63,983 nt of DNA, filler included, from Malassezia furfur (GCA_052055015.1; 10 parts of 10 records of this genome joined end to end with filler, not necessarily neighbours in it); one strand, 5' to 3'; counted from the whole stretch's first letter, positions 2,713 to 63,983 are shown. The notes: generated from the letters alone by a model not told the origin. Translations and numbers: made by a program.

Positions 2713-3754
2713 ATGCTCGACGTGCAGCCGACGCTCGCCGCGCAGCACGCGGCCGAGACGCGCGGCGAGCAGCCAGAGGGGCACACCGTCAAACTCCTAG
2801 CGCTACTTCTACACGCATGCGTGCGATACGCGCTGTGGGCCGCAGGTCAGGTGCCAGCGTACGTCTTCTCGGCCTCCCTAACGCAGACCGCTCGACGCCG
2901 TCGTGCAGGACCTGTCCTACCTCTTGTCCGAGGGACCCTACGGAGCCACTGAGGTCGCCCAGACCTCGTACTCACTAGATATAATGCAGCCAGCTCGGCG
3001 CGTGCCACCGCGTGGGCCACTGCGGCACGCCGTTGCGCTGGCGCAGGCGAGCGCCGACCTCGAGGCTCGGCTGTATGCTGCCTTGCGCGCCCTACAGCAC
3101 GAAACGCCGGATCAGCTTCAGCTCGCCATTGTGCATGGGCCATCGCTGCATTTTGCGCGTGCGACATGGTTCTGGACGCTCGATACAGGCATTCCGCCGC
3201 CGTCGGCCTCCGACGCGCACGACACGGCGGCGCGCCAAACGCAGCGCAAAAAGACGAGTGCTTTGCTGGAACGCAAGCTGATCCGGCACTGCATGATGCA
3301 CGAGGCCCTACAAGGTCCCTCGCTCGCGCCATGCCCGACGCGGGTCCTTCTTTATGCCCCTCATACATTGCGTGTTCCTGGTTGGACACCAAGGCCGCAC
3401 TATAAGGCTACGATACCCCCCGAATCTGACCTGGAGGCAGACATCGACGAGGTCGACGAGGTCGACGAGGTCGACGACGCGATGGACGAGACGAGCGCGT
3501 CCCACGGCTCCTCCCCACCGCCGTCTCGGCACGCACCTCGCACGACGCGTATGCAGCTCCCCGATTTGGCATTGCAGTGCCGTCGCACTCCGACACGCTT
3601 CGCCCCTCGCACAAAAAGCTTGGCACCACAAGCACATGTCGTCCTGCATGGCGACCTGCGCTCGGTCCAGCCGTGCCAAGAACGTCACGTGTGGTTTGAG
3701 TGTGATGTGGTGTTGCGTGGAGTAGCGGAGTTCCGTGACCCAAATCGGGCCTGA
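2713..3754 (+). CDS. Putative p31comet/MAD2L1-binding-like HORMA-domain protein
   Basis: ATG 2713; a 28-nt intron at 2859-2886 joins ...YALWAAGQVPA|PLDAVVQDLSY... to ORF 2903..3754. Motifs GQVPAPLD, LAIVHGPS, ERKLIR, GWTPRPHY and C-terminal WFECDVVLRG occur in the same order as in p31comet, as I recall that sequence. Confidence 0.55.
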
Positions 3755-3826
3755 ATAATTGAAATTGCCCCAACGTGTTGTTTACCTGTCCATTTGTAGC
3801 GCCGACCTGTCCGTTCCTAGCCAGAG

Positions 3827-4508
3827 ATGCAGATCTTGGTGGGGGTGCTGCTCGCCTTCGCCGCACTGCTGCGTGTCGGCGTGTCTGCTCAAGTGGTTGC
3901 GGATACCGGTCTTGAGGGGACATGGTCCACTGGCTCGGGCGCCGTTGAGACGGGGCAGAAGTACTTCAACATCGTCAATGACACCTTCACCGTGCCTCCG
4001 CTGACAGGCCAAGCGTACAGCTTCCAGCCTCGCACGGCATCGACGGGGTACTATGAGGAGCTCATTTACAAATTCAACACGAGCAGTACGTGCGCGCTAG
4101 TGGTGCTGACCCACAGTCCCGCAGCCTGGGTGTTACATTGCGGTGTTGCTCTGGCAGCACGGTAACTACACCATCAACAAAAACAACTCGATCACCATGA
4201 CACCTTTTGCGCCGGATGGACGCCAGCAGGTGTCGAGGCCGTGCGATAGCTCGACGGACTACACGGGCTACTACTACCAGTGCGTCGTACCTACTGACCC
4301 AGGGAGGAATTCATGCAACGTTACGAGATCACCACGTATTTGCACTACAACCAGCCGACGTACAAGCTGCAGCTGTACGACTTTGATGGCTCGATGAAAC
4401 CCTCCATGTACCTCAAGTACCGCCCTGCGGCCATGTACCCCACTATGCCGCTGCACATGAACGTACGTAAGCTGTGTGCTCACCCAGGTTATTGGCGTGG
4501 ACTCGTAA
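3827..4508 (+). CDS. ROT1: ER chaperone Rot1 family protein
   Basis: Signal peptide followed by LEGTWSTGSGAVETG, GQAYSF, WQHGNY, PFAPDGRQQVS, LQLYDFDG, MYPT. Introns at 4086-4116 (31 nt), 4280-4302 (23) and 4463-4487 (25) link the ORF pieces. Confidence 0.85.
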
Positions 4509-4550
4509 GTAGCTCCATAGGCCACGTGCCATCGATACCCTCGACCATCC

Positions 4551-8913: not shown

Positions 8914-9206
8914 CCCCGCCGCGCGCCGTGTTTCTGCGCTGCGGGTCGGCGATCGTGTGTTCGCGATCCCAAGTCGGGGTGGTCAAGACGCGTGTGGGAT
9001 TTGTCGGCCGAGATGGGAGGCGCGACGGCGGAGTAGTAGCCGAGGCGGAGCGCGCCAAGGCTCGCACGGCACGCACCGGCGGGCGCCCACGACACGGCGA
9101 GGCGCCCAGCCGTGCAGGTAATCAGGCCGTAGCACGGCATCGTATCGCCGCGCACACGCACACATGGCCACGGCGTCGGCAGAGCGCGTCCGTTGGTATC
9201 TAATGT

Positions 9207-9661
9207 CTACAGCTCGCGGGGGTCGTCGTGCATCGGGCTCCAGATACCACGCGCCGACTCGGTGGTGCTCTGCACCGGCATACGCTTGAGCGCGTTGGTC
9301 TTCTTGCCGCTCGCATCGAGGATTTGCTGGGCCTTTGCGCCGATTTGCGTCGCAGGCAGCTGGTGCGTCGACATTTCCTTCGTACGGCCATTCACTGCGT
9401 CAGTACGGCGCACGTACGGTAAAATCCACGCAGCAGAGGCGGGCGCTGCGGCCGCGGCTGCACCACGAATTCCACCGAGGGGTATGCGCGCGCGAGCGGC
9501 GCGAGACGCTGGAGCACAAAGTCCCGCGTCCCCTTGCTGCTCTCGCTCTTTTCGCAATACTCAATGACGAGCTTGCGGCACGGCAGCGTGAACGTGCCCG
9601 TGCTGCCACCAGGCTGTGGCCGCGTCGACAGCGCGCTCCGGACCAGGCGCGCGCGAGACAT
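9207..9661 (-). CDS. MRPL51: Mitochondrial ribosomal protein mL43
   Basis: FTLPCRKLVIEYC...SSKGTRDF...PLLRGFYLNGRTKE...VQSTTESARGIWSPMH; a 23-nt intron at 9395-9417 joins the two frames. Confidence 0.9.
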
Positions 9662-9855: not shown

Positions 9856-11236
9856 ATGTCGGGACAAATGAATGAAGCCGATCAGAACATCCAGGTACGT
9901 CCGCCACACCGCGCTCACACGTCAGATTTGGAAGGTGAAAAAGCTGGTCAAAAGCCTCGACAGCGCGCGTGGTGCGGGCACGTCGATGATCAGTCTGATT
10001 CTGCCGCCGCGCTCGCAGCTGTCGCAAGCTACCAACATGCTTACGCAGGAGTACGGTACCGCGAGCAACATCAAGTCGCGCGTCAACCGTCTCTCCGTGC
10101 TGGCCGCCATCACTTCGACGCAGCAGCGTCTGAAGCTCTACTCGCGTGTGCCGGACAACGGCCTGGTGGTGTACTGTGGCACGATCCTCACGCCCGAGGG
10201 CAAGGAAAAGAAGGTCAACTTCAGCTTTGAGCCGTTCAAGCCGATCAACACGTCGCTCTACCTCTGCGACAACAAGTTCCACACCGAGGCGCTTTCGGAG
10301 CTGCTCGAGTCGGACGCCAAGTTTGGCTTTATCATCATGGACGGTAACGGCACGCTGTTCGGTACGGTGACCGGCAATGCGCGCCAGGTCCTGCAAAAGT
10401 TCTCGGTGGACCTGCCCAAGAAGCACGGTCGTGGTGGTCAGTCCGCGCTGCGTTTCTCGCGTCTGCGTGAGGAGGCGCGGCACAACTACGTGCGCAAGGT
10501 GGCCGAGCTGGCGACGCAGCACTTTATCACGGACAACAAGTGCAACGTCACCGGTCTGGTCCTGGCCGGTTCCGCAGACTTCAAGACGGAGCTGAGCCAG
10601 TCGGACATGTTTGACTACCGTCTGCAGCCCAAGGTGATCCAGATCGTCGATGTGTCGTACGGTGGTGAGAACGGGTTCAACCAGGCGATCGAGCTGGCCG
10701 CCGACTCGCTCGCGAACGTCAAGTTCGTGCAGGAGAAGCGGCTTATCCAAAAATACTTTGACGAGATCTCCATGGAGACGGGCAAGTACTGCTTCGGCGT
10801 GGAGGACACGTTCCGGGCACTCGAGATGGGTGCCGTGGAGACGCTGATTGTCTGGGAGAACTTGGAGCACATGCGCCACGTCCTGCGGGACTCGAACGGC
10901 TCCGAGCACGTGTTGATCCTCACCAAGGAGCAGGAGGAGGACCGGTCGCGCTTCATGGACTCGGCCACCGGCGCTGAGATGGAGCCAGTCGAGGAGCCGC
11001 AGCCGCTACTCGAGTGGATCGCAGAGAACTACAAGCAGTTCGGTACGAACTTGGAATGTACGTATGGACGCACCTACTGACCCGCAGTCGTCACGGACCG
11101 CTCGCAGGAGGGCATGCAGTTCTGCAAGGGCTTTGGTGGTATTGGTGGTATCCTCCGCTACAAGGTTGCCTTTGAGGACCTTGCCATGTACGATGATGAC
11201 GAGGGCGAGTTTATGAGCGACGACGACGACGATTAA
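9856..11236 (+). CDS. SUP45: Eukaryotic release factor 1 (eRF1)
   Basis: [47 protein letters not shown]; introns at 9895-9925 (31 nt) and 11058-11087 (30 nt). Confidence 0.97.
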
Positions 11237-13361: not shown

Positions 13362-13478
13362 NNNNNNNNNNNNNNNNNNNNNNNNNNNNNNNNNNNNNNN
13401 NNNNNTTAATTAATTAANNNNNNNNNNNNNNNNNNNNNNNNNNNNNNNNNNNNNNNNNNNNTTCTGCTGCTGCCCGAC

Positions 13479-14504: not shown

Positions 14505-14579
14505 TTCGTAGGGGTTCGTGAGGCGCAGAATGCGGAAGAAAACGAATGCATATTCATATTATTCTATAGATACAGGCAA

Positions 14580-23200: not shown

Positions 23201-23773
23201 ACACACGTACCGCCCGGACTTGACCAGGTGCGTGATCGCCGCCTCGGCTGGGACGCGGCGCATCACGCGCCCAGAGTTGGCGTGGATCGCCAGCAGCACG
23301 TCGTTCTCGGTGAGCGTGCCGGACGCCGCCTGGGGCGTCGCACCGCCCACAATCACGTCGGAGCTCGTGCTGAGCGGCGACAAACACATCCCGGCCAGCT
23401 CCAGCCCGGGCGCATGATCGCTGCGGTCAGTCACGCGCGACGCGGGTAAGACGTACTTTATACACACGCTCCACCGGCCCAGCCCGGTGCGCTGCGCGGC
23501 ACACACCGAGTCGCCGCTTGCGCTGATGATCGACTTCTCGTCCGAAACAATCGTGTGCACGGCGCTCCGCCGCGACGACGAACCGTGCGCGGGATAGCTC
23601 GAGTACCGCGAAAACGCCGGCGGCGTGTTTGTATGCGACGTCACCTGGCCGGACGCATTGCCCGTCCAAAGCAGCTCGGCAAACGGGTCAAAGTACAGCG
23701 ACGTCACCGCGCCGAGCATGCCGGGCACGGCATGATCGGCGAAGAAGTGCGCCTGCTGCGACCATTCCGCCAT
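20279..23773 (-). CDS. PAN2: PAN2-PAN3 deadenylase catalytic subunit Pan2
   Basis: N-terminal WD40, IQYSRFGVEDFDFGYYNKT.FSGLE, pseudo-UCH domain (CLLCEAGFLF.ML) and DEDD nuclease (VAIDAEFV, FIGHGL.KDF, HDSIEDA); in-frame 36-nt intron at 23421-23456. Confidence 0.95.
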   Translation of the reverse strand: MAEWSQQAHFFADHAVPGMLGAVTSLYFDPFAELLWTGNASGQVTSHTNTPPAFSRYSSYPAHGSSSRRSAVHTIVSDEKSIISASGDSVCAAQRTGLGRWSVCIKYVLPASRVTDRSDHAPGLELAGMCLSPLSTSSDVIVGGATPQAASGTLTENDVLLAIHANSGRVMRRVPAEAAITHLVKSGRYVCAGTAQGHIQLRDPRTLAIEHQIAAHHGGLIDIQAEGNLIYSIGWTLRQGHRVPEPMIKVHDLRTLQARVPIPMTAPGGPAFLAIHPKRTSLLAVATPQAQFQVVDTNNPGQTQFYLLPSASYLSSMTFSSSAEALAFGESDGSVRLWTNDAKASQAALPVRFNAYPTKPPPAADFALPPPRIDWQPDTPLSCIGMPHYDSRLLSALSADDYWSHGTPLLTRPAKIDAGVLDHVQSVQGLGFAPLPKHLRGQRNQLVSTDDLTDRFERNGKLKRTALARLRGARGDRRVHLARFHSEQTGGDAPDEAWEADHAGMPGYYRLLSIQYSRFGVEDFDFGYYNKTRFSGLEANAACAGATYVNAYLQALQYTRALRAFAQRHTRMPCPSDECLLCEAGFLFCMLDEARGTNCQATNFARVFGHMPKVHALGLLDDASSAAAPYSQLAQRLNHFLLGELSQEALRTGASMALPTEVLALCANPCAYTLQTHSTCGVCGHHSSRQHLAHVLPLVYPPPGAPPAHDVASVLGASFARDAVVRGKCRHCHAPHAPHATFRTVPSTDALPAVLSMNAGVHTAAQLAQWVPDRDRGDAFLAPYLAVHVAHGRVHATCHATEPHGEHVAVYTLRALVVQVQGAHDAPHLCTYVRGASDEDREAWTLFNDFLVRPVPADEVLRFGEAWKIPALLVWERIDGAAQAHAAHLAHAASRLSPDTRLLTADVNMAVHRDTAHIRHELLAPDELPEPGTLVAIDAEFVALAEEEVEISSDGTRSVLKPGSLALARVSVIRGQGPKEGVPFIDDHIHVPERVVDYLTQYSGIQPGDLDPGTSRATLVPHKIAYKKLRMLVDRGCRFIGHGLAKDFRIINLYVPPSQVVDTVCLFHSPAHPRNLSLRFLSWFLLKRDIQSGLVLKANDAHVPDETHEGHDSIEDAEAALQLYRCYESFVRDARLEDVLEDLYEIGARVQWRPPARPSEPASS

Positions 23774-29937: not shown

Positions 29938-30847
29938 ATGAGCGACGCCGAGCCGTTTGACGAGACCGAGGAGACGTTCGGTGAAGCCGGCGCCCTGGAC
30001 GGCGAGCCCGAGTCTGGCTCGCCTTCTTCGTCTGAGGAGTATGCCTCCGAGGAGGAAGAGGAGGAGGAGGACGAGCTGGTGGACGAGATGGAAGACGTCG
30101 AGCCAATCGAGACGAACCGCCGCACCCGCCGCCCGCTGCGCATCAAACTATCGCGCTCTAAGCCGCCTTCCGAGTCCACACCTAACTCGACGCCCTCGCG
30201 GCGCTCTGGTCGGCGCACAACACGCACGGCGCGCGCCAGGGCTAGCAGCGGCATGTCGGACGCGTCCGACGACGACGAGCTGGCCGCATCTGACGACTCC
30301 GATGAGCTTGCGTCCGAGTCAATGGACCAGCCGATGACCGCGCGACAGATTGCGCGTGCGAACCGCGAGCGTGGGATCCAGAACGAGGAACTTGTTGAGC
30401 TACCGATGGGTGCGTCCCCTACACACTCACTCCCAGAGCCCACCAAGCGCCAGAAGCTGTCCGAGACCGAGCTGGCCCTGCGCCGCTCTGAGACTGCACG
30501 GAGGCGTCGCAACCAGAGCGAAAAGAAGCTGGAGGACGACAAAATCGAGGTAAGCAAGCGCGCCGCTTACCCAGACCATCAATCGGCTGCTCAAGAAGCA
30601 GGCGGGCAAAGTGCGCGGCAAGGACCGCGGCGACGATACGCCCAACACGCACGAAGCACGCGCAAAACCACGCGACAGCGGGCCACTCCCCATGTTCCGG
30701 TATATTTCGCGAGCGGACGGTGCGCTGCTTGCCGTGCCGCCGGGGCCGCCATTTGTAGACGACGCCGAGGCGGGCGAGGGGCTGTACGACCATGTGCTGC
30801 GCACCGCCTTTGGCCAGTCCGTTGAGACATGGACGCATGCCAAGTAG
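29938..30847 (+). CDS. IES2: INO80 complex subunit Ies2 (PAPA-1 domain)
   Basis: MTARQ...LPMEP...LSETELALRRSETARRRRNQSEKKLEDDKIE|TINRLLKKQ; introns at 30410-30436 (27 nt) and 30550-30574 (25 nt). Confidence 0.85.
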
Positions 30848-36009: not shown

Positions 36010-37165
36010 ATGTCGGGTGTGGATGTTGTGATCATCGGTACGTGCGCGCCGCTCTCACACAGGTGTCGGCCTCGTCGGTAGTGCTGTAATTCGCCAGCTC
36101 TCGTCGACTTCGTCGCTCTCGTCGCTGCACGTCGTTGCGCTGCAGAACAGCAAGAAGACGCTGTTCGCGAGCCCGGGCAAGCGCCTCATGCTCGGCACCC
36201 AGGGCGAGTGGAAGGCGGCGCTCGACGCGAGCCCCATCAACGCGCTGCCGCTGCCGGAGCTCGTCAAGCATCTTCAGGAGCTGCAGGCGCAGAACCAGCG
36301 CCACATGGTCATCGTCGACAACACGTCGGACGACGGCGTTGCGTCCTTCTACCCGAGCTTCGTCCAGGCCGGCTTCAGCGTCGCGACGCCGAACAAGAAG
36401 GCGTTCTCGGGCTCGCTCGAGCTCTACGCGCACATCCTGCACTCGGCGCTCCAGCCCGAGGTCGCGCAGAAGAGGCCGCTGGTGTACCAGGAAAGCACCG
36501 TCGGCGCCGGTCTGCCGATCATCAGCACGCTCGACGAGCTCGTCGTGACGGGCGACAAGATCAAGAAGATCGAGGGCGTGTTCAGCGGCACGATGAGCTA
36601 CATCTTCAACGAGTTCAGCCCGCCCGGCGGCTCCACGCGCAAGTTCTCCGAGATCGTCACCGTCGCTCGCGAACGTGGGTACACGGAGCCGAACCCCGGC
36701 GACGACCTGTCTGGCTCGGACGTGGCACGCAAGCTGACGATCCTCTCGCGCCTCATCCCGGAGCTTGCCAACGTGCTCCCCGAGGGCTACACGTCGGTGA
36801 ACACGCAGTCGCTCACGCCTGCGGGCCTGCGCGACGTGACCGACGCCGAGACCTACGTCCGCCGCCTGCCCGAGTTTGACGCCGAGTTCGACGAGCTGCG
36901 TGCCAAGGCGCAGGCAAACAACGCGGTGCTGCGCTACGTCGGCGTGATCGACGTCGAGAAGCGGATCATCCGCGCGGGGCTCGAGGCGTACCCGGCGGAC
37001 CATCCGTTCGCGACGTCGCTCGGCGGCTCGGACAACATCATCTCGTTCTCGACCGAGCGCTACAGCCCGCGCCCGCTGCTCGTGCAGGGTGCCGGTGCCG
37101 GCGCCGAGGTCACCGCGATGGGCGTCGTGGGCGACCTGGTGCGCATTGCGCAGCGTAGAATGTAG
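36010..37165 (+). CDS. HOM6: Homoserine dehydrogenase
   Basis: IIGVGLVG (across a 25-nt intron at 36038-36062), [65 protein letters not shown]. Confidence 0.95.
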
Positions 37166-39138: not shown

Positions 39139-39966
39139 CTACTTAGCAGCATAGTCCATACCCAGCTTGAAGCCGGTCGCCAGATGCTCCAGACGCGCGT
39201 CCACCGCATAGTTTTTCGTGCGGAATTCTGTGTGAGTGTATGCACGTACGCTGCAGCTCCTCGTAGAGCGTCGGAAGGGGCAAAAGGTGCCGCTCGATGT
39301 ACTCACCCTCGTCGGGGTGAGCCACCGGCTCCGGTGCGTCCTCCGCAAGCTGGATCTCGACGGTGCACAGCTTCATCGTCGCATTCGTCAGGCCCGGGTC
39401 GTTGAACTGAATGCCACTGAGCAACTTGACATCGACAGTGTGCGACGCATCGCTCGTGCCATAGCCAGTTTCTTCACCGAGCTCACGCAGCGCTGCACGC
39501 TTCGTGCCCTCGTCGCTCTCTTCGCCAGGATCAATCAGACCCGCGGGAAGTTCCAGAATCACTTGGCCCACAGGCGGGCGGAACTGCGATACGAGCAGGA
39601 CGTGCGGCACTTGGTTCGGCCGGCGGATGATGGTGAGGATTGCCACCGCTGCGTCAGAGTACAGATGTACGCACCGTCGACATCGCCCTTACGCGTCTTG
39701 CGCACAGCACAGTCCCAAAAGCGTTCCTTTCCGGCAGGATCCACCCACTGGATTGTGCGCAGACCAAGCCACTTGGCGTCGGCGTCATTCAGTGGCGTGG
39801 TATTTTGCACCTTGGCGCTGTGCAGGTCATACTTCTGCGTCGACATGGGCTGTACGCGAGAAAAACAGCTTGAGATACAGGTGGTAGGATAGTAGGGGGC
39901 ACGCACACACTGCGAAAGTGGTACGAGGGCCGGACGGTACGAACGGGCCACCGAGCGGAAAGCCAT
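39139..39966 (-). CDS. YSA1: Nudix ADP-ribose pyrophosphatase (Ysa1/NUDT5-like)
   Basis: QFRPP...ELPAGLID...RELGEETGY, DPG, DARL; introns at 39649-39674 (26 nt) and 39228-39249 (22 nt); start at ATG 39966 or 39846. Confidence 0.85.
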
Positions 39967-42629: not shown

Positions 42630-43611
42630 ATGGTACGCACCCTGTCTGCTGTCCTCCGGTAGAGCGGTGCTGCGCCTGTGTGCTTGCACGCACCCCAGCA
42701 CCCGCTCGCCAGAGGCAGTTTTTAGAGCTCCGAGCTCGCCGCTTGTGAACAGTTGGCTGACTCGTCTCGATGACCCTACAGCCCCCTAAGGCTACCAAGA
42801 CAGGTTCTTCCAAGAAGCCCGCTGCCGCGCCCGGCAGCAAGGGCAGCGCCAAGGCGCCCTCGAACCCGCTGTTCGAGAAGCGCTCCAAGAGCTTTGGCAT
42901 CGGTACGTCACCGCACTCACCCCAGGCCAGGACATCCAGCCCAAGCGTGACCTGACCCGCTTTGTCAAGTGGCCCGAGTACGTGCGCCTGCAGCGCCAGC
43001 GCGTCATCCTGAACCAGCGCCTCAAGGTGCCCCCGGCGATTGCGCAGTTCTCCAACACCCTCGACAAGAACACGGCCACGGCGCTGTTCAAGCTGATGAA
43101 CAAGTACCGCCCCGAGTCGAAGCAGGAGAAGAAGGCGCGTCTCGACGCGGTCGCCAAGGAGGTCGCGGCCGGCAACAAGGTCGACCCCAAGGCGGACGGC
43201 AAGAAGCCGCTCTTTGTCAAGTACGGCCTGAACCACGCCGTGGCGCTCATTGAGGCCAAGAAGGCCAGCCTCGTGGTGATTGCCGACGACGTCGACCCCA
43301 TTGAGCTGGTCATCTTCCTCCCGGCGCTGTGCCGCAAGATGGGCATCCCCTACGTGATCGTCAAGTCGAGCTCGCGTCTCGGTGCCGTGGTGCACCTCAA
43401 GCGCACCGCCGTCGCCGTCATCCAGGACGTGCGCTCGGAGGACGAACGTGAGCTCGCGGACCTCGTGTCGGCCGCCAAGGCCAACTACCTCGACAAGTAC
43501 GACGAGGCCCGCCGCCACTGGGGCGGTGGTGTCCGCGGCAACAAGTCGGCGGAGAAGATGCGCAAGCGCGCCAAGAACGCCGGCCAGCCGATGAAGTCCC
43601 TCGACCTGTAA
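42630..43611 (+). CDS. RPL8: 60S ribosomal protein eL8 (L7a/L8)
   Basis: ATG|149-nt intron 42633-42781|PPK...[14 protein letters not shown]|23-nt intron 42903-42925|[24 protein letters not shown]...[22 protein letters not shown]. Confidence 0.97.
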
Positions 43612-43761: not shown

Positions 43762-44065
43762 CTACGTAGCAGGGCGCTGGATGTCGCCGCGAATGTCGAG
43801 CGCTGGCGGCGCAGGCGGCGGCGCCGGCGGGGCGTGCTCGAGGACAAACTGCGAGCGCACGTGCGCCTCGCCCTGGCGGTAGCCTTGCATCGCGCCCAGG
43901 AAGTACATCTGTGTGAGCCGCGCCACGTACGAGCGTGCCGACACTCGTCGAGAGCGCGATCATCGTGCGTGACGTCCACCGCTGCTCGGAGAACGAGGGG
44001 CGCGGCGGCGGCGGCGTGCTGCGCGGCCGCGCACTTTGCCATACCCGCACGGAAGCGCGCACCAT
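43762..44065 (-). CDS. Small (about 93 aa) single-TM protein with a presequence-like N-terminus, unknown function
   Basis: ATG 44065; a consensus 22-nt intron at 43909-43930 (gtacgt...gctcacacag) yields the continuous hydrophobic segment MIALSTSVGTL|MYFLGAM. Confidence 0.55.
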
Positions 44066-44127: not shown

Positions 44128-44600
44128 ATGAGCCAGGCGCAGCCGGAGCGCGAGCCGGCGCGCGAGCGACGTGCGTAGGCGCCACTGACGCAGCCGCCGA
44201 GGAACGCGCACCGATTCACTTTGCGGATTTCCCGTTCGACGTCACCGCCAAGTACGTGATCCAGCACCGGCTCGACGAGGCATACCCCCCGCGCTCGCTG
44301 CTGCACGACCCGCGCGTCGAGGGCGTGCCCGACGCGCGTGCGGACGCCGACCCGATCTCCGACCTCGCGGACCCGAGCGGCGAGGCACTGGCGCATGCAG
44401 TGCGTACGCGCTCGGCGGCGCACGAGCAGCGTGCGGCCGAGGACGAAGTGCAGCTCTTTGACAAGGAGGCGGCGCACGAGCGGCTCGCGCAGGTCGCGAC
44501 CGACCACTTTGCCGCGACGCCCGCGCCCAAGGAGAGCGATATCATAGTGGGGTTCCTGTACCGGTGCCGCGCGGGCGACTCGGTGCTCAAGATTGTGTAG
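44128..44600 (+). CDS. SAP30: SAP30-like Sin3-binding subunit of the Rpd3L HDAC complex
   Basis: 23-nt intron at 44171-44193; C-terminal LAQVATDHF...KESDIIVGFLY resembles the SAP30 Sin3-binding domain. Confidence 0.65.
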
Positions 44601-45113
44601 CTACATCGGAGCGGCCGGCGGCCATGCTGTGTGTGCGAGGGCCTCGGCCATGCCGCGGCGCCATGCGACGCGCGCGCGCGCCTCGTCGCGCGGCACAAAC
44701 AGACGCGTGCGCTCGTGCGACTCGGGCCAGGTGTCTGCGACGTCCGACGGCGCGACGCCAAAGGCATGCACCGAGTACACCGTGCTCGGCACGAACCGCG
44801 CATCGTGCACGTCGTCCGTGGGCGAGTGCTTGTGCGGCTTGGTGTCGGGGAACGTGTACGGCGCCGGGATGGCGGCGCCCGGGGCGTCCGCGGGGGCACG
44901 TACGCCAGCTGCGTCAGTGGTCGACCTACCCTCTTCCCAGAGCTCGCGCGCGGCCGCCTCGCGCGGCGTCTCGCCGTGCTCGACGCCGCCCTTGGGCAGC
45001 ACGTACGCATCCTTGTGCTTGCGCGACGACACGAGGCACACACGCGCGTCTGCGTGCCCGGCGTGCTGCACGGCGACGGCGATCGCAACCGCCCGCGGCA
45101 CCGGACCTCCCAT
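44601..45113 (-). CDS. DDP1: Nudix diphosphoinositol-polyphosphate hydrolase (Ddp1/Aps1-like)
   Basis: VCLVSSRKH...YVLPKGGVEHGETPREAAARELWEEAGV after removing a 21-nt intron at 44909-44929; WPESHERTR. Confidence 0.85.
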   Translation of the reverse strand: MGGPVPRAVAIAVAVQHAGHADARVCLVSSRKHKDAYVLPKGGVEHGETPREAAARELWEEGRSTTDAAGVRAPADAPGAAIPAPYTFPDTKPHKHSPTDDVHDARFVPSTVYSVHAFGVAPSDVADTWPESHERTRLFVPRDEARARVAWRRGMAEALAHTAWPPAAPM

Positions 45114-45147: not shown

Positions 45148-46620
45148 ATGGACGACGTCGCGCGTCTCTCGGCGGCGCTCGCGGCACCGCTCCCGCCCGG
45201 CACGCGCCGCGCCGCGCTGCTGCTGGAACGCGCCGCGGCGTATGCGGCGCGTGGTGACGACCGCCACGCGCTGCTCGACCTGCGCGACGCGCTCCGCGCC
45301 GCGCCGCGGCATGCCGAGGTACGTCGGTCGCCGCCGCTGAACCCAGTCGCTCCTCGACGCCGCGCGCGTCTTTTTGCAGCTGCGCCTGCGCGAAAAAGCG
45401 GCGCGCGTCCTGCGTGCCGCCGCACAGTGTGCGCCGAACGACGCGGTGCGCCGGCGCATTGCGCAGCTGCAGCGCGACGCGAGTCACCCCGCGCCGCCCT
45501 CTGCACCGTCCATAGGCTGGGCCGCGCGCCTCCCTGCCGAGGTACTGCTCGGCATCGCGCGGCACCTCGACACCGCATCGCTCGGCGCGCTCGCGTCCGT
45601 GTGCCGCGCGTGGCGGCGGTGGGTGTGTGCGCACGCGCCGCTCTGGCACACGGTGCACGTCGGCCGCCTCGGCGCGGCGAGTGCACCGGCCAAGGCGCGC
45701 GCGCAGCGCCAGGCGGCGCTCCTGCGCGTGTACTTGCAGCGCGGCAAGCACCACGTCCGCGACGTGACGCTCGTGCCGCCGCTCGCGGACGCGGACGCCG
45801 CTGCGGTGCTGCGCCCAGCGCCGCCGCTCACCGCGCTTACGGTGCACTGTGCGCCGGCGCACGCCGGGGCGTGGGTCGCGCATGCGCTGCGCATCCCGAC
45901 GCTGCAGCACCTCGCGGTGCACGCGCCCGGCGGCGCGCAGCATGCGTGGCTCGCGCGCCCGCTGTGCATGGACGGGGCGCAGTGTGCGCCGCTCCGTAGT
46001 CTTGCGCTGCACGGCACGCCGCCGCTCCAGGCGGACGCGGCGACGCTGCGTGTGTGCCGTGCGCTGGAGGCGCTCGCGTACAGCGCGCCGGCGTGTGCCG
46101 CGCCGCTGCGGCAGGTGCGCGAGCGGTGTGCGCCGGCGGTGCAGTGCATCGTGCATGGCGCGCAGCGCACGCTGCGCACGCTCGCGCTCGACGGCGACGC
46201 GGTGTGGGCGATCGACGCGTTCCTCGACGCGCCGCGCGTGCCGCAGGCGGGCATCGCGCGCTTCCCGGCGCTGCACACGCTGCATGCGCCGCTCAAGTGC
46301 ATGGTGCTGCACGGCCTGCCCGACGTCGCGCTCAGCACGCTGCTCCCGCAGCTGCACACGCTCACGCTCCAAGTGTCTCTGCCGCGCACGCCGGGCGGCA
46401 CGAGCGCCGCGCTGCTCCAGTTCGCGACGGCGGTCGGCGCGACGGTGCGCTGCGTGCGCCTGCGCATCACACGCGACTCGTCCGCATGGCTCGTCGCGGC
46501 GCTCCTGCGCGCCTGGCCGCACGTCGACGCGCTCGAGGTGGTGTGGGACGAGACGGTGGCCGCCGACGCGCCGCCGCTCGCGACGGCGCACGACGCGCTG
46601 CAGCGCCCGCTCACGGGCGC
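45148..46620 (+). CDS. TPR + F-box + LRR-like protein (Dia2/Pof3-type architecture), 3'-partial
   Basis: N-terminal TPR-like helices (LLERAAAY...ALLDLRDALRAAP), 28-nt intron at 45319-45346, F-box LPAEVLLGIARHL...LASVCRAWR, then LxxLxL repeats. Confidence 0.75.
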
Positions 46621-47081: not shown

Positions 47082-48870
47082 ATGAAGTTCCTACAGAATT
47101 GGATCGATGGCTTCAAGCCAGGAGTCGAGGGGTTCGGCAAGGACCCGACGTACGCCGTGGAGCCGGAATACCATGAGCCTGCGACGACCTCGGAGAAGAT
47201 GGACGAGGCTCTCGGCAAGGACGAGTTCTCCAACGCGACCGTCGCCGTGAAGACCGCCGACGGCGGCGTCGCCTTCGTCCCGGAGAAGACGGGCCTGAAG
47301 CGCTCGCTCGGTGGCCGTCACATTCAGTTCATCGCGCTGGGCGGCAGTATCGGTACGGGTCTCTTCATCGGTTCCGGCTCGAACCTCGCGACGGGCGGGC
47401 CAGGCTCGCTGATGCTCGGCTTCATCATTGTGTCCGTCATGATCATCACCACCGTGTTTGCGCTCGGTGAGCTCGCCGCGGTGCTCCCGGTGACCGGTGC
47501 CTTCTCGACCTACTCCACTCGCTTCATCGACCCCTCGTGGGGCTTTGCCATGGGCTACAACTACTGGCTCCAATGGCTTGTCTCGCTCCCGCTCGAGCTG
47601 ACGGCCGCAGCGATCATTATTCAGTACTGGGACACGGACGTGGTGGTGCCGCAGGGCGTGTGGATCGCCATCGGCCTGATCATCATGATCGTCATCAACC
47701 TGTGTGGTGTGCGCGGCTACGGTGAATTCGAGTTCGTCGCGGCCTTTTTGAAGGTCGTCGGGTGCATTGGCTTCATCATCTGTGCGATCGTGATCGACTG
47801 CGGCGGCACGCCCAGCGGCTACTACATGGGCGCCCAGGGCTGGCACCAGGAGGGCGGTGCGTTCAAGAACGGCTTCAAGGGCTTCTGCAGCGTGTTTATT
47901 ACCGCCGCCTTTGCCTTCTCGGGTACGGAGCTTGTGGGTCTCGCTGCCGCCGAGACGGCGAACCCGCGCCGCCAGCTGCCCAAGGCGTGCAAGCAGGTCG
48001 TGTTCCGTGTGCTGATCTTCTACATTCTCTCGCTCTTTATGATCACGCTGATCGTCTCGCCGAATGCGCCGGAGCTCACCAGCGGCAGCAGCAGCAACGA
48101 TCCGCATGCCTCGCCGTTCGTGCTCGCCATCAAGATGGGCGCGATCAACTACCTCGACAAGATCTTCAACGCCGTCATCCTCATCTCTTCGCTGTCGGTC
48201 GGCAACGCCGCCATCTACGGCGCCTCGCGCACGCTCCTCTCGCTCGCCGAGCAGGGCCTCGCCCCCAAAATGTTCCGCTACATCGACCGCGAGGGCCGTC
48301 CGCTGCCCGCGGTGATCCTCTCGCTGCTCTTCGGCCTGCTCGGCTTTTTGATCTACTCGAGCGACCCCATGACCGTTTTTGTACGTGACCCCTCCACTGA
48401 CCATGCAGAACTGGCTCCTGGCCATCTCGGGTCTCGCAGCGATCTTCACCTGGGCGTCGGTGTGTATGGTGCACATCCGCTTCCGCCACGCGTGGATCGA
48501 CCAGGGCAACCCGCTCGAGCTGCTCCCGTGGGCGTCGCCGCTGGGCATCATCGGCTCGTACGTCGGCCTGGTCATGAACGTCCTCGTGATCATCGCCTCC
48601 TTCTACGCCGGGGCGTGGCCCATCGGCGAGGGGGACATGACGGCTTCGGACCGCGCCAACGCGTTCTTCGAAAGCATGCTCTCGCTGCCCGTGGTCCTCA
48701 TCTTCTTCCTGGGCCACAAGCTGGTCACCCGCAGCCGCTTTGTGCGCCTGAGCGAAGTCGATATCCACACCGGCCGCCGCGACCCAGTGCCGCTCGAGGT
48801 GCTCGAGCAGGAGCGTGCGGAGGACCGCGCGAAGCCGCTGTACCTCAAGATCATCGACTTCTTCATTTAA
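47082..48870 (+). CDS. Amino-acid permease (APC/YAT, Gap1-like), tandem copy 1
   Basis: RHIQFIALGGSIGTGLF, RFIDPSWGFAMG, AFAFSGTELVGLAAAE, SPFV; 28-nt intron at 48381-48408. Confidence 0.93.
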
Positions 48871-50997: not shown

Positions 50998-51087
50998 GTT
51001 ATCATGGGTCCTGCATCCGCGCTGCGGGGGTGCATTTGCGGCGTACGCAAACAGTATTGATAACTGTCATCTTATCGCGCGCGATAG
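50998..51087. promoter_or_regulatory. GATA-motif cluster upstream of permease 3
   Basis: gttatc 50998, gataac 51059, cttatc 51071 and gatag 51083; the last two form the palindrome tatcgcgcgcgata. Confidence 0.5.
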
Positions 51088-51182
51088 CGCAATGCGTGCG
51101 CAACGGGAGCATAAATGGGCGCAGCCCGATACCCAACACACCCAGGTGCGTCCCCCCCTCCCAACCAACTTCCTACACTCCG

Positions 51183-56067: not shown

Positions 56068-57415
56068 ATGGAGTGGACCGTGGGGGGGGACAAGGTGCGC
56101 GGTACGTGCGCACGGCTCACGCAGCGCTCATCTACGGGCTCGCATGCCTGTATCGTTTCGGAGACCACTGCTGGATCAGCTGCGTGCGCGACCCACACGA
56201 TGCTCGCCTCCGCGTACGTGCCGCACTGCTCACCGACAGCTCCAGCTCTCCGACGTGAACGCGTCGAGCTCTGCGTACGGCCTGTTTGTGCTGCACGAGC
56301 GCTTCTTTGAGCGCATCCAGCTCACAGATGAGGACGTCGAGTGCCAGATTCATATCCGCGTACGTTGCATGCCTCACCACCCAGACCGTCCTCGCAGCGC
56401 TGCGGATGCGCGCGTCGATGCTCCGCTGCACCTTTGTGCTCGACGCACACGCCGAGCCGGCACGCCTCGAGATCCGCATCGAGTGCGAGCACGGTACGCA
56501 TGCTCTGCTCACCCAGGCGTCCAAAAACGGCACCGTCTCACCTACGAGGACCGCCCGGGATTATACCCCTCGATCGATGCGCACCCGCCGTTTGGGCTAA
56601 GCGTGCGCCCGGCGACCGCCAAGGAATGGATGGAGCACTTTATGAACAGCGGGAAAACGGGCGAGTGCTCGCTGCACTGCACACCGCATGCGTGTACGAT
56701 GCACAGCCGGCTCGACGCGCCGCCGGACCCCAAGGAGCATGTGCGCAACTCGATCCAGAGCGAGGTGCGGCTTCCGCTCTCTGAGATGCTCGAGTACGAC
56801 GTCACGGACGAGTGCACGGTACAGTTTTCGCTATGGGAGTTCCGCGCCGCGATCCACGTTGCCGAGCAGCTCGGTTCGTCGGTGTCGCTTGCGTTTGGGT
56901 ACGGCGGCGATCCCCTGTTTGTACGGCTGCACGTGTCCGACGCGCTCTCTGCCGAGTTTATCCTCGCGACAACCGGCGACGCGCCCGAAGACACAGCGCC
57001 CGCCCCCAAACCGCGCGCAGCGTCGCCCGACGTCGTACCTGTGCCGCCGCGCGCTGCGTCGCCAACGCCGCCGCGCGCCGCCTCGCCACCCGTGCCGGTG
57101 GCCGCCGATGCGACGCGCTCGAGTGACGACGAAGACCTGCTCGGCGCCCCGCGCGTCAAAGTAGAGGCTACGCCCGCGGCATCGCACCATCCGCCCTCGC
57201 AGGTGCCCCTGTCCCAGCTGCTGGTGCAGCCGACGCCGATCGGCGCGGGTGGGAACCGCGACGAGCACCCATCAGCGCTATTTTTCTCGTCGCCGAGCCC
57301 GCCACCCTCGACGCAAGACGACGCGCTTCCCCCCACACAGCCGCACGGCGCGCGCAAAAAGGTAGGTGTGACCCCCACAGGGAACTAACCCCCACAGTTC
57401 CGCCCCCTGTTCTAG
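56068..57415 (+). CDS. RAD9: 9-1-1 checkpoint clamp subunit Rad9/Ddc1
   Basis: [20 protein letters not shown]...[38 protein letters not shown], terminal FRPLF; introns at 56102-56124, 56214-56239, 56360-56384, 56494-56516 and 57362-57397. Confidence 0.85.
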
Positions 57416-57507: not shown

Positions 57508-59805
<2,298 letters not shown>

Positions 59806-60203: not shown

Positions 60204-60609
60204 CTAGGCATCCAGCATCGACGAGCCGCCCGACTGCGTGAGTGTGGGTGACGTACGTTGATCGCCTCCATCTCGGCCGGGCTCCAGCGCAGCGACGGCG
60301 TGTCCCAGAACCGCGAGGGCAGGTCGTAGATCGTGCTCGTCTCGTCGGCAGCCACAGGCTCGCCCTGCGCAGCGCCCTCGGCGCCGCCGTGCTTCACGAG
60401 CTTCTCCGGGTCGAAATGCGGGCCGCTGTCGTGCAGCTTCTTATAGTGGTCAAAGTTCTCCACGATCTCCTGTGGCGCATCCGGGTGCGGACGGGGCGCG
60501 TGCGATTCTGCATGAGGCGACACAACGTACCCTTGGGCGCCTTCCGGTCCGGGAAGCGCATCATCGGCTTGTATGTATGCGCGAGCCGCACCAGCGTCGG
60601 TCGAAGCAT
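60204..60609 (-). CDS. KGD4: Kgd4/Ymr31 (MRPS36-like) alpha-ketoglutarate dehydrogenase adaptor
   Basis: PMMRFPDR...PRPHPDAP...LPSRFW...SPAEMEAINSGG; 23-nt introns at 60508-60530 and 60234-60256. Confidence 0.85.
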
Positions 60610-60681: not shown

Positions 60682-61005
60682 ATGACCGAGGTTGACCATA
60701 CGGCGTCGCTCGAGGAGGCTCAGGCTGCGCGTCTGCCCCTCGGCTACCGTGACGCATGCAGCGCGTACGTTGGACCATCTGACCCAAGTCTGCTGATCCC
60801 GCTTAACCAGTGCCGGCGGAAGACGCTGTACGCGCCGTGGAAGTGCGAGGAGGAGCGGTACGTCGGCACACCACTTACGCAGCCACACCTACGAGCGCTG
60901 CCAATACCAGGAGTAGGTTGCACAAACCACTGACCCAGTTTCCTTGCGCGCGAGAAGAAGCTGCGCCAAATGAAGCTGCAAGAGGCCGAGGCGGCCGAGG
61001 AGTAA
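60682..61005 (+). CDS. NDUFB7: Complex I accessory subunit NDUFB7 (B18)
   Basis: LPLGYRDACSALLIPLNQCR...PWKCEEERHTYERCQY (twin CX9C); introns at 60765-60788, 60858-60882 and 60913-60938. Confidence 0.92.
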
Positions 61006-61023
61006 AAACAGCTCCCGTAGGCG

Positions 61024-61792
61024 CTATCGTACACTGGGCGTGGAAGCCGCGCCCTGTTTGCTACCGACACCGTCGACCGTGTGGGTGGATGAGTTGGCCG
61101 CCGCGACGTCGTGGCGGTACAGCGCATCCTGCCGCAGCTCGAGAGCCTTGCCGATGAACCCAATATAGAATACGCGCGAGGTCTGCTGCGTCGCCGAGTC
61201 GGACTGCGAGTCAGCAGCGTTCACGTACCAGCATCACGCTGACGCTCTGTGTCTGTGCAAAGCGCGAGGCGCTCACGGGGTACGCTGTGACGCCCGGCGT
61301 CTGCTCGAGAAGCGCAAAGTCGGCCTGTGGCCGTGCGCCGCCCGCGGGAGCGACGTGCGCGCCGGGCACCGCGTCCATCTCGGCGGCAGCCTCGTCAAAG
61401 TCGATGCCGTTGGGCCGATTGACGAACAGCGTGCATCGCTGTGTGAGTCGGTAGACGTACGCGCGGCGCAAAGTCGCCGGTGCCCGGGTTAAGAAGGATG
61501 CTCTGCAGACGCACGGGACTCGTGAATGGCACGGTGATGATCATCTGTGTGAGCGTGCGCCACCTACCTGGTCGTCGACGCCGCTCTCGACCCACACGTC
61601 GGTGGTGTTGCGCGCGTCCCAGGGCTTGATGGCGTCCTTGGCGGACTCGGGGGGTTCGATATTTAGCCCATACACGCGGTCGCGGTCAATGTAGGTATAG
61701 AGGTTGTGCGCGTCGCCGTACGCGCCCGTCGCGTTGCCTGCCTCGGCGTTCGGCTCGCGGTCCAGCGCAGTTGCGTCGCCCCCGCACTGCAT
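61024..61792 (-). CDS. PITH-domain protein (PITHD1-like)
   Basis: NLYTYID...GLN...IKPWDAR...[24 protein letters not shown]...LFVNRP..IDFD...RVFYIGF.G; introns at 61545-61567, 61439-61460 and 61204-61228. Confidence 0.88.
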
Positions 61793-61872
61793 GGCGCCGG
61801 CGAACGCGTGGACGCTGGCCTTGGAGGTTGTGGAGGCATGTTGGCGCAGGTGTGCCGTCGCCTCCTGCAAGC

Positions 61873-63983
61873 ATGGTGCGTATGCAGCGACCCGACTGAC
61901 GTGCAGGGAGTGCCGGCATTGTTCCGATGGCTCTCGAAAAAGTACCCCAAGATCATCCAGAGTGTCGAGGAGGATGAGCCGGCGCGGATCCCTGGGCGCG
62001 ACGGCGAGGTGGTCGAGGTGCCGGTCGACATCTCGCGCCCGAACCCCAATGGCGAGGAATTCGACTGTCTGTACCTGGACATGAACGGTATTGTACATCC
62101 GTGTACGCACCCCGAGGGCAAGCCGCCGCCCCAGACGGAGGAAGAGATGATGACCGAGGTGTTTGCGTACACGGAGCGCGTCGTGAACATGATCCGACCG
62201 CGCAAGCTGCTCATGATGGCGATCGACGGCGTGGCGCCGCGTGCAAAGATGAACCAGCAGCGCAGCCGGCGCTTCCGCTCCGCGCAGGACGCGCAGATCC
62301 TGCTTGAGCAGCAGGAGAGCGAGCTCGAGGCGCGCAAGAGCCGCGGCGAGGCGGGCGCCGACGAGGTGGTGAAGCGGTCGTGGGACTCGAATGCGATCAC
62401 GCCCGGTACGCCGTTCATGGACCTGCTGGCGAACTCGCTGCGGTTCTGGATCGCGCACAAGCTCAACACGGACCCCGGGTGGAAGGACCTGTGCGTGGTG
62501 CTGAGCGACGCGAGCGTCCCCGGAGAGGGCGAGCACAAGATCATGGACTACATCCGGCGCAAGCGCAGTGATCCGAACCACGACCCCAACATGAAGCACG
62601 TTATCTACGGGCTGGATGCGGACCTGATCATGCTGTCGCTCGCGACGCACGAGCCCTACTTCAAGGTGCTGCGTGAAGACGTCTTTGCGCAGGACGCCAA
62701 GAACCGCGGGTGCCACCGGTGCGGCCAGGAGGGCCACATCGTCGCGCACTGCACCGGCAAGGCGCGGCCGAAGGACGAGGCGCCGAAGAAGCCGGAGAAG
62801 AAGCCGTTCATCTTCCTGGACGTGCCGACGCTGCGCGAGTACCTCGAGATCGAGCTGCTCGTGCCGGACACGCCGTTCCCGTTCGACCTGGAGCGCGCGA
62901 TTGACGACTGGGTCTTTCTGATCTTTTTTGTGGGCAACGACTTTTTGCCGCACCTGCCGAGCTTGGAGATCCGCGAGGGCGCCATCGATACGCTGCTGGG
63001 CATCTGGAAGCGCGAGCTGCCGCGCATGGGTGGCTACGTGACGAACAACGGCAAGGTCGAACTCGCACATGCGCAGTACATCCTCGACGGCCTCATGCAG
63101 TCCGAGGATGACATCTTCCGCAAGCGCAAAGAGACCGAAGAGCGCCAGGAGGCCAACGCGCGCCGGCGCCGGCAGCACGCCGACGCGGATGCGCAGCGCA
63201 GCGGGCGCGACAGCGACTCGCTGCAGCACGGCGATACAAGCTACGTCGAGGTGAAGCCCAAGGTCGAGATGCCCACCTTGCAGCCAGCACGGGCCACTGG
63301 CAAGGGGCCGGTGATGCTCGACGGCGACAGCATGGAGGTGGTGCGCAACCGCGCCCAGATCCGCATGGCCAACATCAGCGCGGCAGACGCGCTGCGCCAG
63401 GAGCTCGCGTCGAAGGGCAAGAAGGGCACGAAGCGCGCGGCGCCTGCGCCGGACGCAAGCCGCAAGCGCGAAAAGGTGGCGGACGCGGAAACGTCGGGCG
63501 ACTCGGCCGTATTCAAGTTGGATGAGGACGTGAAAGCGGCCGAGGCACCGGCCGAGCAGCGCGCCGCGTCGCTTGCCAGTGCGCTCGAAGGGGGGGATAA
63601 GCAAGCGGCGCAGGAGAGCGCCGAGGTCAAGGCAGAGGACGCCGGCGCTAGCGTCAAGGCAGAGGACGCCGACACCAGCATCAAGGCAGAGGACGCCGAC
63701 ACCAGCGTCAAGGCAGAGGATGCCGACACCAGCGTCAAGGCAGAGGACGCTGAAGACGACGACGAGAATGCCGACGACGACGACGACGACGATGATGCGC
63801 CGGACGTCCCGCCCGAGATCAAGGCCGTGGAGCGCAAGGTGAATGCGGACGGTACGGTGGACTACGAAGACACCGTCAAGCTGTACGAGCCCGGCTACCG
63901 CGAGCGCTACTACCGCCAAAAGTTTGGCGTGGAGCTGTCCGACGTCGCGTTCCGGCGCAAGGTGGTGCAGGCGTACGTCGAGG
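61873..63983 (+). CDS. RAT1: 5'-3' exoribonuclease 2 (Rat1/Xrn2), 3'-partial
   Basis: [17 protein letters not shown] (31-nt intron at 61876-61906), [52 protein letters not shown] knuckle, GNDFLPH; open to the window end. Confidence 0.96.
63626..63751 (+). repeat. 27-nt coding tandem repeat (4 full units plus 1 partial) encoding [VI]KAEDADTS
   Basis: Units of gtcaaggcagaggacgccgacaccagc start at 63626, 63653, 63680, 63707 and 63734. Confidence 0.92.

Follow-up and report, generated by a model that had tools for sequence, protein, structure and literature searches.

The window analysed here (63,983 nt) consists of ten unrelated contigs of the Malassezia furfur assembly joined by linkers; the assembly itself (13.7 Mb in 1856 contigs) is fragmented and hybrid-like, with two subgenomes. 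The initial annotation had claimed 39 short GT-AG introns of 21-36 nt in the window, an observation that is confirmed at the level of sequence. A motif scan with a frame check recovered 37 predicted introns and a 38th (45319-45346) came from a codon-gain scan. All 38 have GT...AG ends, and their lengths reproduce those claimed (21 nt, one; 22 nt, four; 23 nt, twelve; 25 nt, eight; 26 nt, three; 27 nt, one; 28 nt, three; 30 nt, one; 31 nt, three; 36 nt, two), while a single 24-nt intron and one longer intron of the claim were not located by the window scans. The predicted introns are listed below with their strand and evidence (codon, codon test; copy, second-subgenome copy; 3n, length a multiple of three).

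2859..2886 (+): 28 nt, gene without Pfam match (copy 29 nt, GT-AG kept)
4086..4116 (+): 31 nt, ROT1 (codon; Pfam Rot1 52 to 57; copy)
4280..4302 (+): 23 nt, ROT1 (codon; Pfam Rot1 107 to 111; copy)
4463..4487 (+): 25 nt, ROT1 near 3' end (copy; codon not confident)
9395..9417 (-): 23 nt, L51/S25/CI-B8 domain gene (codon; Pfam continuity)
9895..9925 (+): 31 nt, eRF1 (spliced product equals public M. furfur protein over aligned length; colinear with other fungi)
11058..11087 (+): 30 nt, eRF1 (in-frame stop if retained; Pfam eRF1_3 79 to 81; colinear with homologues)
23421..23456 (-): 36 nt, PAN2 (motif evidence only; 3n, no stop)
30410..30436 (+): 27 nt (3n), PAPA-1 (Ies2-like) gene (copy)
30550..30574 (+): 25 nt, variant donor, PAPA-1 gene (Pfam PAPA-1 27 to 28; copy)
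31798..31820 (+): 23 nt, UBA2-like E1 (Pfam ThiF 49 to 50; copy)
32267..32288 (+): 22 nt, UBA2-like E1 (copy; the window's one confident codon failure)
34064..34086 (+): 23 nt, proteasome beta subunit (codon; stop if retained)
34678..34702 (+): 25 nt, proteasome beta subunit (codon; copy)
34770..34794 (+): 25 nt, proteasome beta subunit (codon; copy 23 nt)
36038..36062 (+): 25 nt, homoserine dehydrogenase (copy 22 nt)
39228..39249 (-): 22 nt, Nudix hydrolase (codon; copy)
39649..39674 (-): 26 nt, Nudix hydrolase (codon; copy 25 nt)
42903..42925 (+): 23 nt, ribosomal protein L7Ae family (RPL8-like), ancestral position (codon; related loci)
43909..43930 (-): 22 nt, small gene without Pfam match (codon; copy)
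44171..44193 (+): 23 nt, SAP30 Sin3-binding domain gene (motif; stop if retained; codon not confident)
44909..44929 (-): 21 nt, second Nudix gene, the window's shortest (motif; 3n, no stop; NUDIX match ends at junction)
45319..45346 (+): 28 nt, candidate with variant branch site, F-box gene (codon-gain scan only)
48381..48408 (+): 28 nt, amino acid permease (codon; Pfam AA_permease 356 to 357)
56102..56124 (+): 23 nt, Rad9 (homologue alignment; copy)
56214..56239 (+): 26 nt, Rad9 (homologue alignment; copy 23 nt)
56360..56384 (+): 25 nt, Rad9, read through in public gene model (codon; homologues; copy)
56494..56516 (+): 23 nt, Rad9, read through in public gene model (homologues; copy)
57362..57397 (+): 36 nt, Rad9 (stop if retained; homologues; copy)
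59615..59637 (+): 23 nt, PAK/Ste20-type kinase (codon; Pfam Pkinase 139 to 141; copy)
60234..60256 (-): 23 nt, Kgd4/YMR31 (copy)
60508..60530 (-): 23 nt, Kgd4/YMR31 (codon; copy)
60858..60882 (+): 25 nt, NDUFB7 (copy)
60913..60938 (+): 26 nt, NDUFB7, 30-nt exon upstream (copy 25 nt)
61204..61228 (-): 25 nt, PITH domain gene (codon; copy 24 nt)
61439..61460 (-): 22 nt, PITH domain gene (codon; Pfam PITH 83 to 86; copy)
61545..61567 (-): 23 nt, PITH domain gene (codon; Pfam PITH 55 to 56; copy)
61876..61906 (+): 31 nt, directly after XRN2/RAT1 start codon (frame check; Pfam; copy)

In the codon test, where confident cases of non-3n length numbered 42 and 18, removal of the introns restored the reading frame in 41 and 17 of them, respectively; Pfam domains run on across the junctions, and the spliced eRF1 and Rad9 products are colinear with their homologues. 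Four introns (starting at 23421, 44171, 44909 and 45319) have a weaker basis, being 3n or motif-only. In the second subgenome, position and GT-AG ends are kept in all 28 introns checked, five of which differ in length by non-multiples of three; conservation between the subgenomes is 98% for the donor, 99% for the acceptor and 92% for the branch site, with 68% for the spacer and 93% for the flanking exon. Several candidates were dropped: the GC-AG candidates at 10024-10048 and 32519-32545 are coding sequence as judged by frame, Pfam and eRF1 comparison, and those at 56171-56196(-), 51552-51602(-), 12168-12207(-), 10463-10493(-), 9184-9212(+) and 37419-37455(+) had no frame support or lay antisense to a gene. 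Among the 15 members listed of the 42 in the eRF1 cluster there was no transcript-derived M. furfur protein. The expectation that gene finders would mis-annotate such genes is borne out by the public M. furfur Rad9 model, which retains the 25- and 23-nt introns as if they were exon.

The signals follow a tight layout. Among the 37 scanned introns the donor is GTACGT in 26, GTGCGT in five, GTAGGT in four and another sequence in two; a CTNAY branch site, as the scan required, is found in all 37 and can pair with the U2 GUAGUA box. The branch A lies 16-20 nt from the 5' end in 28 of the 37 (range 16-30) and 6-10 nt from the 3' end (6 nt in 25). Donor positions +5 G and +6 T fit the U6 ACAGAGA box, +4, mostly C, does not, and exon position -1 is G in just 110 of 251 motif-defined introns. 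U12-type introns have an RTATCCTT donor and a TCCTTAAC branch site; such a donor was found in none of the 38. T makes up 15% of the sequence between branch site and AG and 21% of the spacer, and TTTT occurs in 13 of the 251, which upholds the claim that there is no polypyrimidine tract. These features indicate that the introns are almost certainly of the major (U2-type) spliceosomal class, reduced to hardly more than three signals (a donor of 6 nt, a CTNAC branch site and CAG), and removed by RNA splicing.

In the window the motif gave 36 matches, 14-26 times the means of 1.4-2.6 (maximum 8) in 4 x 100 Markov simulations. Genome-wide, the strict motif gave 5735 matches against 278 in the control, an excess of about 5,450. 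The motif-defined introns have a modal length of 22 nt, a median of 24 nt and a sharp floor at 21 nt, so that the claimed mode of 23 nt fits the window lengths, which were reproduced, but not the genome. There were four matches of 13-20 nt against nine in the control and 163 of 21-25 nt against 14; introns of at most 30 nt make up 84% of the 251 motif-defined introns of 21-45 nt, and in the motif-defined genome-wide set no excess over control was found above 36 nt or below 21 nt. The floor was measured on motif-matching introns, and introns of another layout are invisible to the scan. The branch A is usually 6 nt from the 3' end and practically never nearer to the donor end than position 16: a branch A at positions 10-15 was as frequent as in the control (11 matches each), and a separate class of 16-18-nt introns was rejected on the same grounds (11 against 11); two of five inspected 16-18-nt matches are nested within 21-nt introns. 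The comparison with ciliate introns made in the initial annotation is sound, most motif-defined introns being below 30 nt with a hard lower limit.

The U2, U5 and U6 snRNAs were found easily, with a canonical U2 branch-pairing box and U6 ACAGAGA box. U1-70K is present in two copies, one in each subgenome, with an intact-looking RRM, as are two copies of U1-C with its zinc finger, and Luc7, SF1, U2AF35 and Slu7; a search for RED_N, run without a positive control, gave no match, and no loss of Smu1/RED is claimed from it. With U1-70K, U1-C and Luc7 in place and the U1 snRNA alone not found, the suggested reduction of the U1 snRNP is not upheld, and a loss of its proteins of the Cyanidioschyzon merolae type was not seen.

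U2AF65, by contrast, which normally binds the pyrimidine tract that these introns lack, is present but altered, in keeping with the suggestion that U2AF may be modified. The RNA-binding faces of RRM1 and RRM2 have decayed across the whole Malassezia clade, whereas the UHM has not: identity is 0.33-0.40 against 0.52-0.65 in others for RRM1, 0.48-0.51 against 0.70-0.78 for RRM2, and unchanged for the UHM (0.46-0.60 against 0.48-0.63). All three RRM1 aromatic positions are kept in 0 of 19 Malassezia-clade proteins and in 99 of 101 others. The ULM-type Trp is retained, and U2AF65 may still touch RNA because RRM2 keeps two of its three aromatic positions. Malassezia is on a long branch in a quick version of the U2AF65 tree (47 of 120 rows).

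That indels from sequencing or assembly produced the frame breaks, or that the introns are chance motif matches in a GC-rich genome, has next to no probability. The assembly is fragmented and relaxed patterns do yield false matches, as the two coding GC-AG candidates illustrate, but the genome-wide excess is 20-fold, and indels, which the initial annotation had named as what would overturn it, are excluded because the signals persist in all 28 second copies, which are about 90% identical, while spacers drift and lengths differ. The L7Ae-family position also carries longer introns in other fungi: introns of 30-59 nt occupy it in 27 of 80 related loci (37 are contiguous); distant fungi have 47-59 nt there, Malassezia-like contigs 30-57 nt and M. 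furfur 23 nt. This one traced position, ancestral and shrunk, also makes recent insertion of transposon-derived (Introner-like) elements of uniform small size very improbable, as do the spacers, which by eye are unrelated between introns; the rigid layout and narrow size would suit such an origin, as would the presence of thousands of these introns in a genus counted among intron-reduced lineages.

A spliceosome with a reduced U1 or none, like that of Cyanidioschyzon, in which U5/U6 would recognise the donor directly, would agree with the C at donor +4, the scarcity of G at exon -1 and the failure to find a U1 snRNA where U2, U5 and U6 were readily found. U1 was not found with Rfam RF00003 (best match at E 1.4, with nothing like a U1 5' end close to it) or RF00488, in a search that scored just 41 of 173 candidates, nor by 5'-end, loop and promoter motifs or cmscan of matched loci; the promoter pattern common to U2 and U5 led to no U1, but it missed U4 too. 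The assembly, moreover, has gaps, as shown by several single-copy genes that turned up in just one of the two subgenomes, and with the U1 proteins and Luc7 in place this reading is improbable. More credible, yet still unlikely, is an ordinary fungal spliceosome, under which a distribution of lengths biased by deletion tails off at the floor and the U2AF65 decay reflects generally fast protein evolution in Malassezia. The core snRNAs and most tested factors are canonical, the genus is on a long branch and medians are 30-40 bp in other Malassezia; however, counts of none for 19-20 nt, 33 for 21 nt and 45 for 22 nt form a jump and not a tail, the decay is confined to RRM1 and RRM2 while U2AF35 matches the S. 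pombe protein at E 7e-80, human splicing fails at a donor-branch distance of 46 nt and Cryptococcus introns below 40 nt splice poorly.

The explanation preferred here, tiny U2-type introns recognised by intron definition with a tether-set floor, is as a whole probable. Its mode of working, in which donor and branch site together define the whole intron, is somewhat favoured. SF1 would read the branch site and the conserved U2AF35 the AG just 3-4 nt away, so that a pyrimidine tract would neither fit nor be required; U2AF65 would be kept as a protein bridge through its conserved UHM and Trp, its RNA-binding RRMs drifting under relaxed selection. U1 would hand the donor over, rather than enter a stable A complex of the human kind, in which the U2 helix is long, and the standard U2/U5/U6 core would carry out the chemistry. 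Of the 16 nt in the lariat loop, the donor would take 6, the spacer 6 (its branch-proximal part may pair with U2) and the branch site, counted as far as the A, 4; a 5-nt tail brings this to the 21-nt floor. Most likely the floor is the shortest tether that joins the U6/donor helix to the U2/branch helix. Since a loop of 10 nt is spliced in Stentor, 16 nt does not mark a physical limit that holds for all organisms, and the floor could be lineage-specific or selective. A tentative extension, which we consider possible, is that early assembly has been rebuilt: a strongly diverged or missing U1 snRNA would mark the donor for a short time only, SF1 and U2AF35 would define the 3' end with U2AF65 off the RNA, and the 16-nt floor would be a ruler set by the activated spliceosome in introns too small for U1 and U2 together.

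Parts of this arrangement have counterparts. In budding yeast (Mud2/BBP) a strong branch site takes the place of the pyrimidine tract and the U2AF65 homologue Mud2 is degenerate, and in Yarrowia the branch site and AG are fused, with the branch A close to the AG. Introns in both are long between donor and branch, and S. cerevisiae has lost U2AF35, unlike M. furfur, where it is conserved. Going by the available accounts, C. merolae resembles M. furfur in its compact genome and undetected U1 snRNA but has no U1 snRNP and few introns, whereas M. furfur has U1 proteins and introns in the thousands; Paramecium introns, at about 25 nt, are in the same size range. According to the available text of PMC9505925, Stentor introns (15-16 nt) share the size range, GT-AG ends and 5-nt tail after the branch A, and all core snRNPs are retained; however, their AU content is 76%, their branch consensus is weak and their loop measures 10-11 nt, as opposed to the GC-rich introns, strong branch site and loop of at least 16 nt of M. 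furfur. Myxozoan and dicyemid introns (median 22-27 bp) likewise have similar lengths and no pyrimidine tract, with U2AF1 and U2AF2 present, but weakened splice signals and a U2AF reported as conserved, in contrast to strong signals and degenerate U2AF65 RRMs; in its available text this 2026 paper names ciliates, Microsporidia and Dicyemida as exceptions and leaves Malassezia unmentioned (PMC13644364). For Malassezia, very short introns have been published before: M. sympodialis has 5,350 introns with a mean of 30 bp, 99% of them backed by RNA-seq, and M. restricta a mean/median of 37.2/30, with a minimum intron of 15-20 set by annotators, and the accessible parts of these papers give summary numbers with no signal geometry, floor or spliceosome analysis (PMC5389616, PMC9241646, PMC6473144). 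The remark in the initial annotation that Malassezia introns are short was right but understated, this size range being implied by the M. sympodialis mean; by the motif-defined median and mode, those of M. furfur are shorter than in both species. Neither the 16-nt floor nor the U2AF65 decay was found in the literature searched.

The minimum distance between donor and branch site is a long-standing question, and for human splicing the limit is about 46-50 nt (PMC6692369). Most organisms far below that limit belong to the ciliates, nucleomorphs or obligate parasites. M. furfur is culturable, and tools for its transformation exist (PMC5137500); together with thousands of strong-signal introns at a floor sharp to one nucleotide and a matched change in U2AF65, this opens the steric limit to direct testing. 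With default settings, gene finders and read mappers mis-call such genes, the public Rad9 model being one example, which affects the annotation of a dominant skin fungus. M. furfur offers a handy model for the smallest loop that the splicing machinery can handle and, if early assembly has indeed been rebuilt, would be a culturable, transformable fungus with sequential assembly on thousands of introns.

The donor-branch-acceptor pattern, in which GT is followed by a short spacer, a CTNAC branch site and a CAG acceptor, had 36 matches along the window, compared with means of 1.4–2.6 and a maximum of 8 in 400 Markov simulation runs (orders 1–5). The final set consists of 37 introns and one candidate with a variant branch site. 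The initial annotation had counted 40 GT-AG introns, 39 of them of 21–36 nt; its length table is matched by 38 introns, with one 24-nt intron missing and the single long intron not located. Genome-wide, the strict pattern gave 5735 matches against 278 in the reversed control, a count that includes some nested matches and leaves out other donors.

The window consists of ten linker-joined contigs (nine of about 6.5 kb each and a shorter last piece) from an assembly of 1856 contigs totalling 13.68 Mb. For most of the window contigs searched, a second copy of about 90% identity was found elsewhere in the assembly, in keeping with the account of doubled, hybrid genomes in M. furfur given in excerpts of PMC4634964. 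The individual features are:

13462-20052: contig that is a near-palindrome throughout, with arms of 2201 nt (94%) and 1021 nt (92%) and, on either strand, ORFs of glycosyl transferase family 41 (O-GlcNAc transferase-like)
26836-29823 (+): Prp22-like spliceosomal DEAH helicase (S1, helicase, HA2 and OB domains), truncated where the contig begins; the intron motif was not seen in this gene
45319-45346: the variant-branch candidate
47022-52931 (+): tandem array of three amino acid permease genes, with a tiny intron in the first only
60858-60938 (+): NDUFB7, a 30-nt exon flanked by introns of 25 and 26 nt

The arms of the palindrome diverge as much as the subgenomes do, so it probably arose when two copies were folded back on each other in assembly; a genuine inverted duplication is the less likely alternative. 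Splicing of both introns around the NDUFB7 exon would set two spliceosomes in competition over some 80 nt.

Sequence comparisons show that the short GT-AG elements of the window are introns rather than sequencing indels, an explanation that the initial annotation had allowed for and that is contradicted by five lines of evidence. When the frame was called separately on either side of the intron, with a codon model for which long ORFs served as training set, removal of the intron restored the frame in 17/18 confident cases of length not divisible by three in the window (22/34 candidates confident, 4 of these divisible by three) and in 41/42 such cases in a 400 kb sample (58/151 confident, 16 divisible by three), the chance expectation being 1/3. 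Pfam positions were continuous over the junctions (PAPA-1 27/28, ThiF 49/50, AA_permease 356/357, Pkinase 139/141, PITH 55/56 and eRF1_3 79/81) in a scan of 52 exon pieces, 20 of which had no match.

One exon of eRF1 matches a M. furfur protein at 100% identity, and the spliced eRF1 product is the same as the public M. furfur protein over the aligned length and is colinear with those of M. sympodialis, Meira and Marasmius. The alignment of spliced Rad9 with an uninterrupted homologue runs over four junctions. The public M. furfur Rad9 gene model (P0136) is an annotation error typical for Malassezia: introns of 25 and 23 nt are retained and the exon between them is translated out of frame, only this exon being affected because the two lengths together are divisible by three. 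Second-subgenome copies were fetched for 28/37 introns (none for the other 9), and all 28 have GT-AG at the same place. Between the subgenomes, the donor is 98% identical, the acceptor 99% and the branch site 92%; spacers of equal length have 68% identity and the flanking exons 93%. Of the copies, 7/28 introns differ in length, 5 of them by non-multiples of three.

The geometry was determined on the largest contigs (560 kb), where matches exceeded the control at 21–25 nt (163 vs 14), 26–30 nt (48 vs 7) and 31–36 nt (23 vs 10), but not at 13–20 nt (4 vs 9), 37–45 nt (17 vs 19) or above 45 nt (below control). The 251 motif-defined introns of 21–45 nt, of which about 50 are expected by chance, have a median of 24 nt and a mode of 22 nt. 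The branch A is at position 16 or beyond in 245/251, its distance from the 3′ end is 6 nt in 145/251, and T content between branch and AG is just 15%. When the branch A was placed at 10–15, the commonest donor gave 11 matches genome-wide against 11 in the control. These counts show a floor, so that the shortest intron has a 16-nt lariat loop and a 5-nt tail; all are motif-defined, and introns of another layout would escape them.

The position of the 23-nt intron of the L7Ae-family gene is occupied by introns of 30–57 nt in 20 Malassezia-like metagenome contigs and of 47–59 nt in seven more distant loci; it is contiguous (intron-free) in 37/80 loci, a further 16/80 giving no call. The shared position is the fifth line of evidence against indels; this one intron, at a minimum, is thus of old origin and has become shorter.

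Two U6, one U2 and two U5 snRNA copies were found, and the U6 ACAGAGA box, U2 branch-pairing box and U5 loop 1 are canonical-looking. U1 snRNA was not found in the gapped assembly, where the Rfam search scored 41/173 candidates. U6 (loci L001/L002) has changes around the internal stem-loop (one inserted base relative to the Rfam consensus). The Sm-site region of U2 (L003) has a non-standard AUCUUUUUCG-type run, the U5 counterpart being AUUUUUCG. An AACGGCC element lies about 75–108 nt upstream of U2, U5 and U6 (L003, L212, L213, L001) and is common to all three, with an additional A/T-rich box and TATA element at U2 and U5; genome-wide, AACGGCC with TATA was found at these snRNA genes alone, and the arrangement is a possible snRNA promoter.

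The splicing proteins U1-70K (2), U1-C (2), Luc7, SF1, U2AF35 (2) and Slu7 are present, and the U1-70K and U1-C genes have introns of 23–32 nt themselves. U2AF35 is well conserved (E 7e-80 to S. pombe U2AF23). RED_N gave no match in a search run without a positive control. U2AF65 was found and aligns with human RRM1-2. Among 120 homologues, with a quick tree on 47 rows, 19 form one branch (SH-aLRT 100) that includes all six named Malassezia species, 13/19 rows having no species name. All three aromatic RNP2/RNP1 positions of RRM1 are kept in 0/19 of this branch and in 99/101 other fungi; in RRM2 the first RNP1 aromatic is kept in 4/19 and 101/101, respectively, although, as a reason for caution, the branch retains two of the three aromatics there. 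Aromatic residues at these RRM positions stack on RNA bases. Mean identity to three outgroups is lowered relative to other Ustilaginomycotina in RRM1 (0.33–0.40 vs 0.52–0.65) and RRM2 (0.48–0.51 vs 0.70–0.78), but not in the UHM (0.46–0.60 vs 0.48–0.63).

The 1–5 nt between branch site and CAG would leave no space for the RRMs of U2AF65, so the 3′ end is probably recognised by SF1 and U2AF35, with U2AF65 retained as a bridge. In human A complexes U2/SF3 has a long footprint, for which the gap between donor position 6 and CTNAC (at least 6 nt) is too small; an early U1 handover or a short branch helix is therefore probable. So sharp a floor points to a physical limit of the tether, which would be lineage-specific since Stentor tolerates a 10-nt loop (PMC9505925). 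In excerpts of other work, a donor-branch distance of 46 nt abolished human splicing (PMC6692369) and Cryptococcus introns of <40 nt are spliced poorly (PMC11913375).

Short introns are already known for the genus from M. sympodialis (mean of 30 bp over 5,350 curated introns, 99% of them with RNA-seq support; PMC5389616), M. restricta (mean/median 37.2/30, PMC9241646; annotation with the minimum intron set to 15-20, PMC6473144) and a review mentioning 'very short introns' (PMC7426719). The supplementary length plot of PMC5389616 may already show the same distribution. Excerpts of a 2026 paper about introns below 30 bp name ciliates, Microsporidia and Dicyemida, without any mention of Malassezia (PMC13644364), and excerpts of PMC8476143, PMC3560662, PMC2396436, PMC12506658 and PMC13368582 added nothing on intron geometry. 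In the open-licence full text of PubMed Central and bioRxiv, a scope that excludes subscription papers, nothing was found on the splice geometry of Malassezia, on a length floor or on decay of U2AF65. The introns are genuine and of the ordinary class, in an extreme size regime known in part for the genus; the sharp floor and the matching, domain-specific change in U2AF65 are, apparently, unreported.
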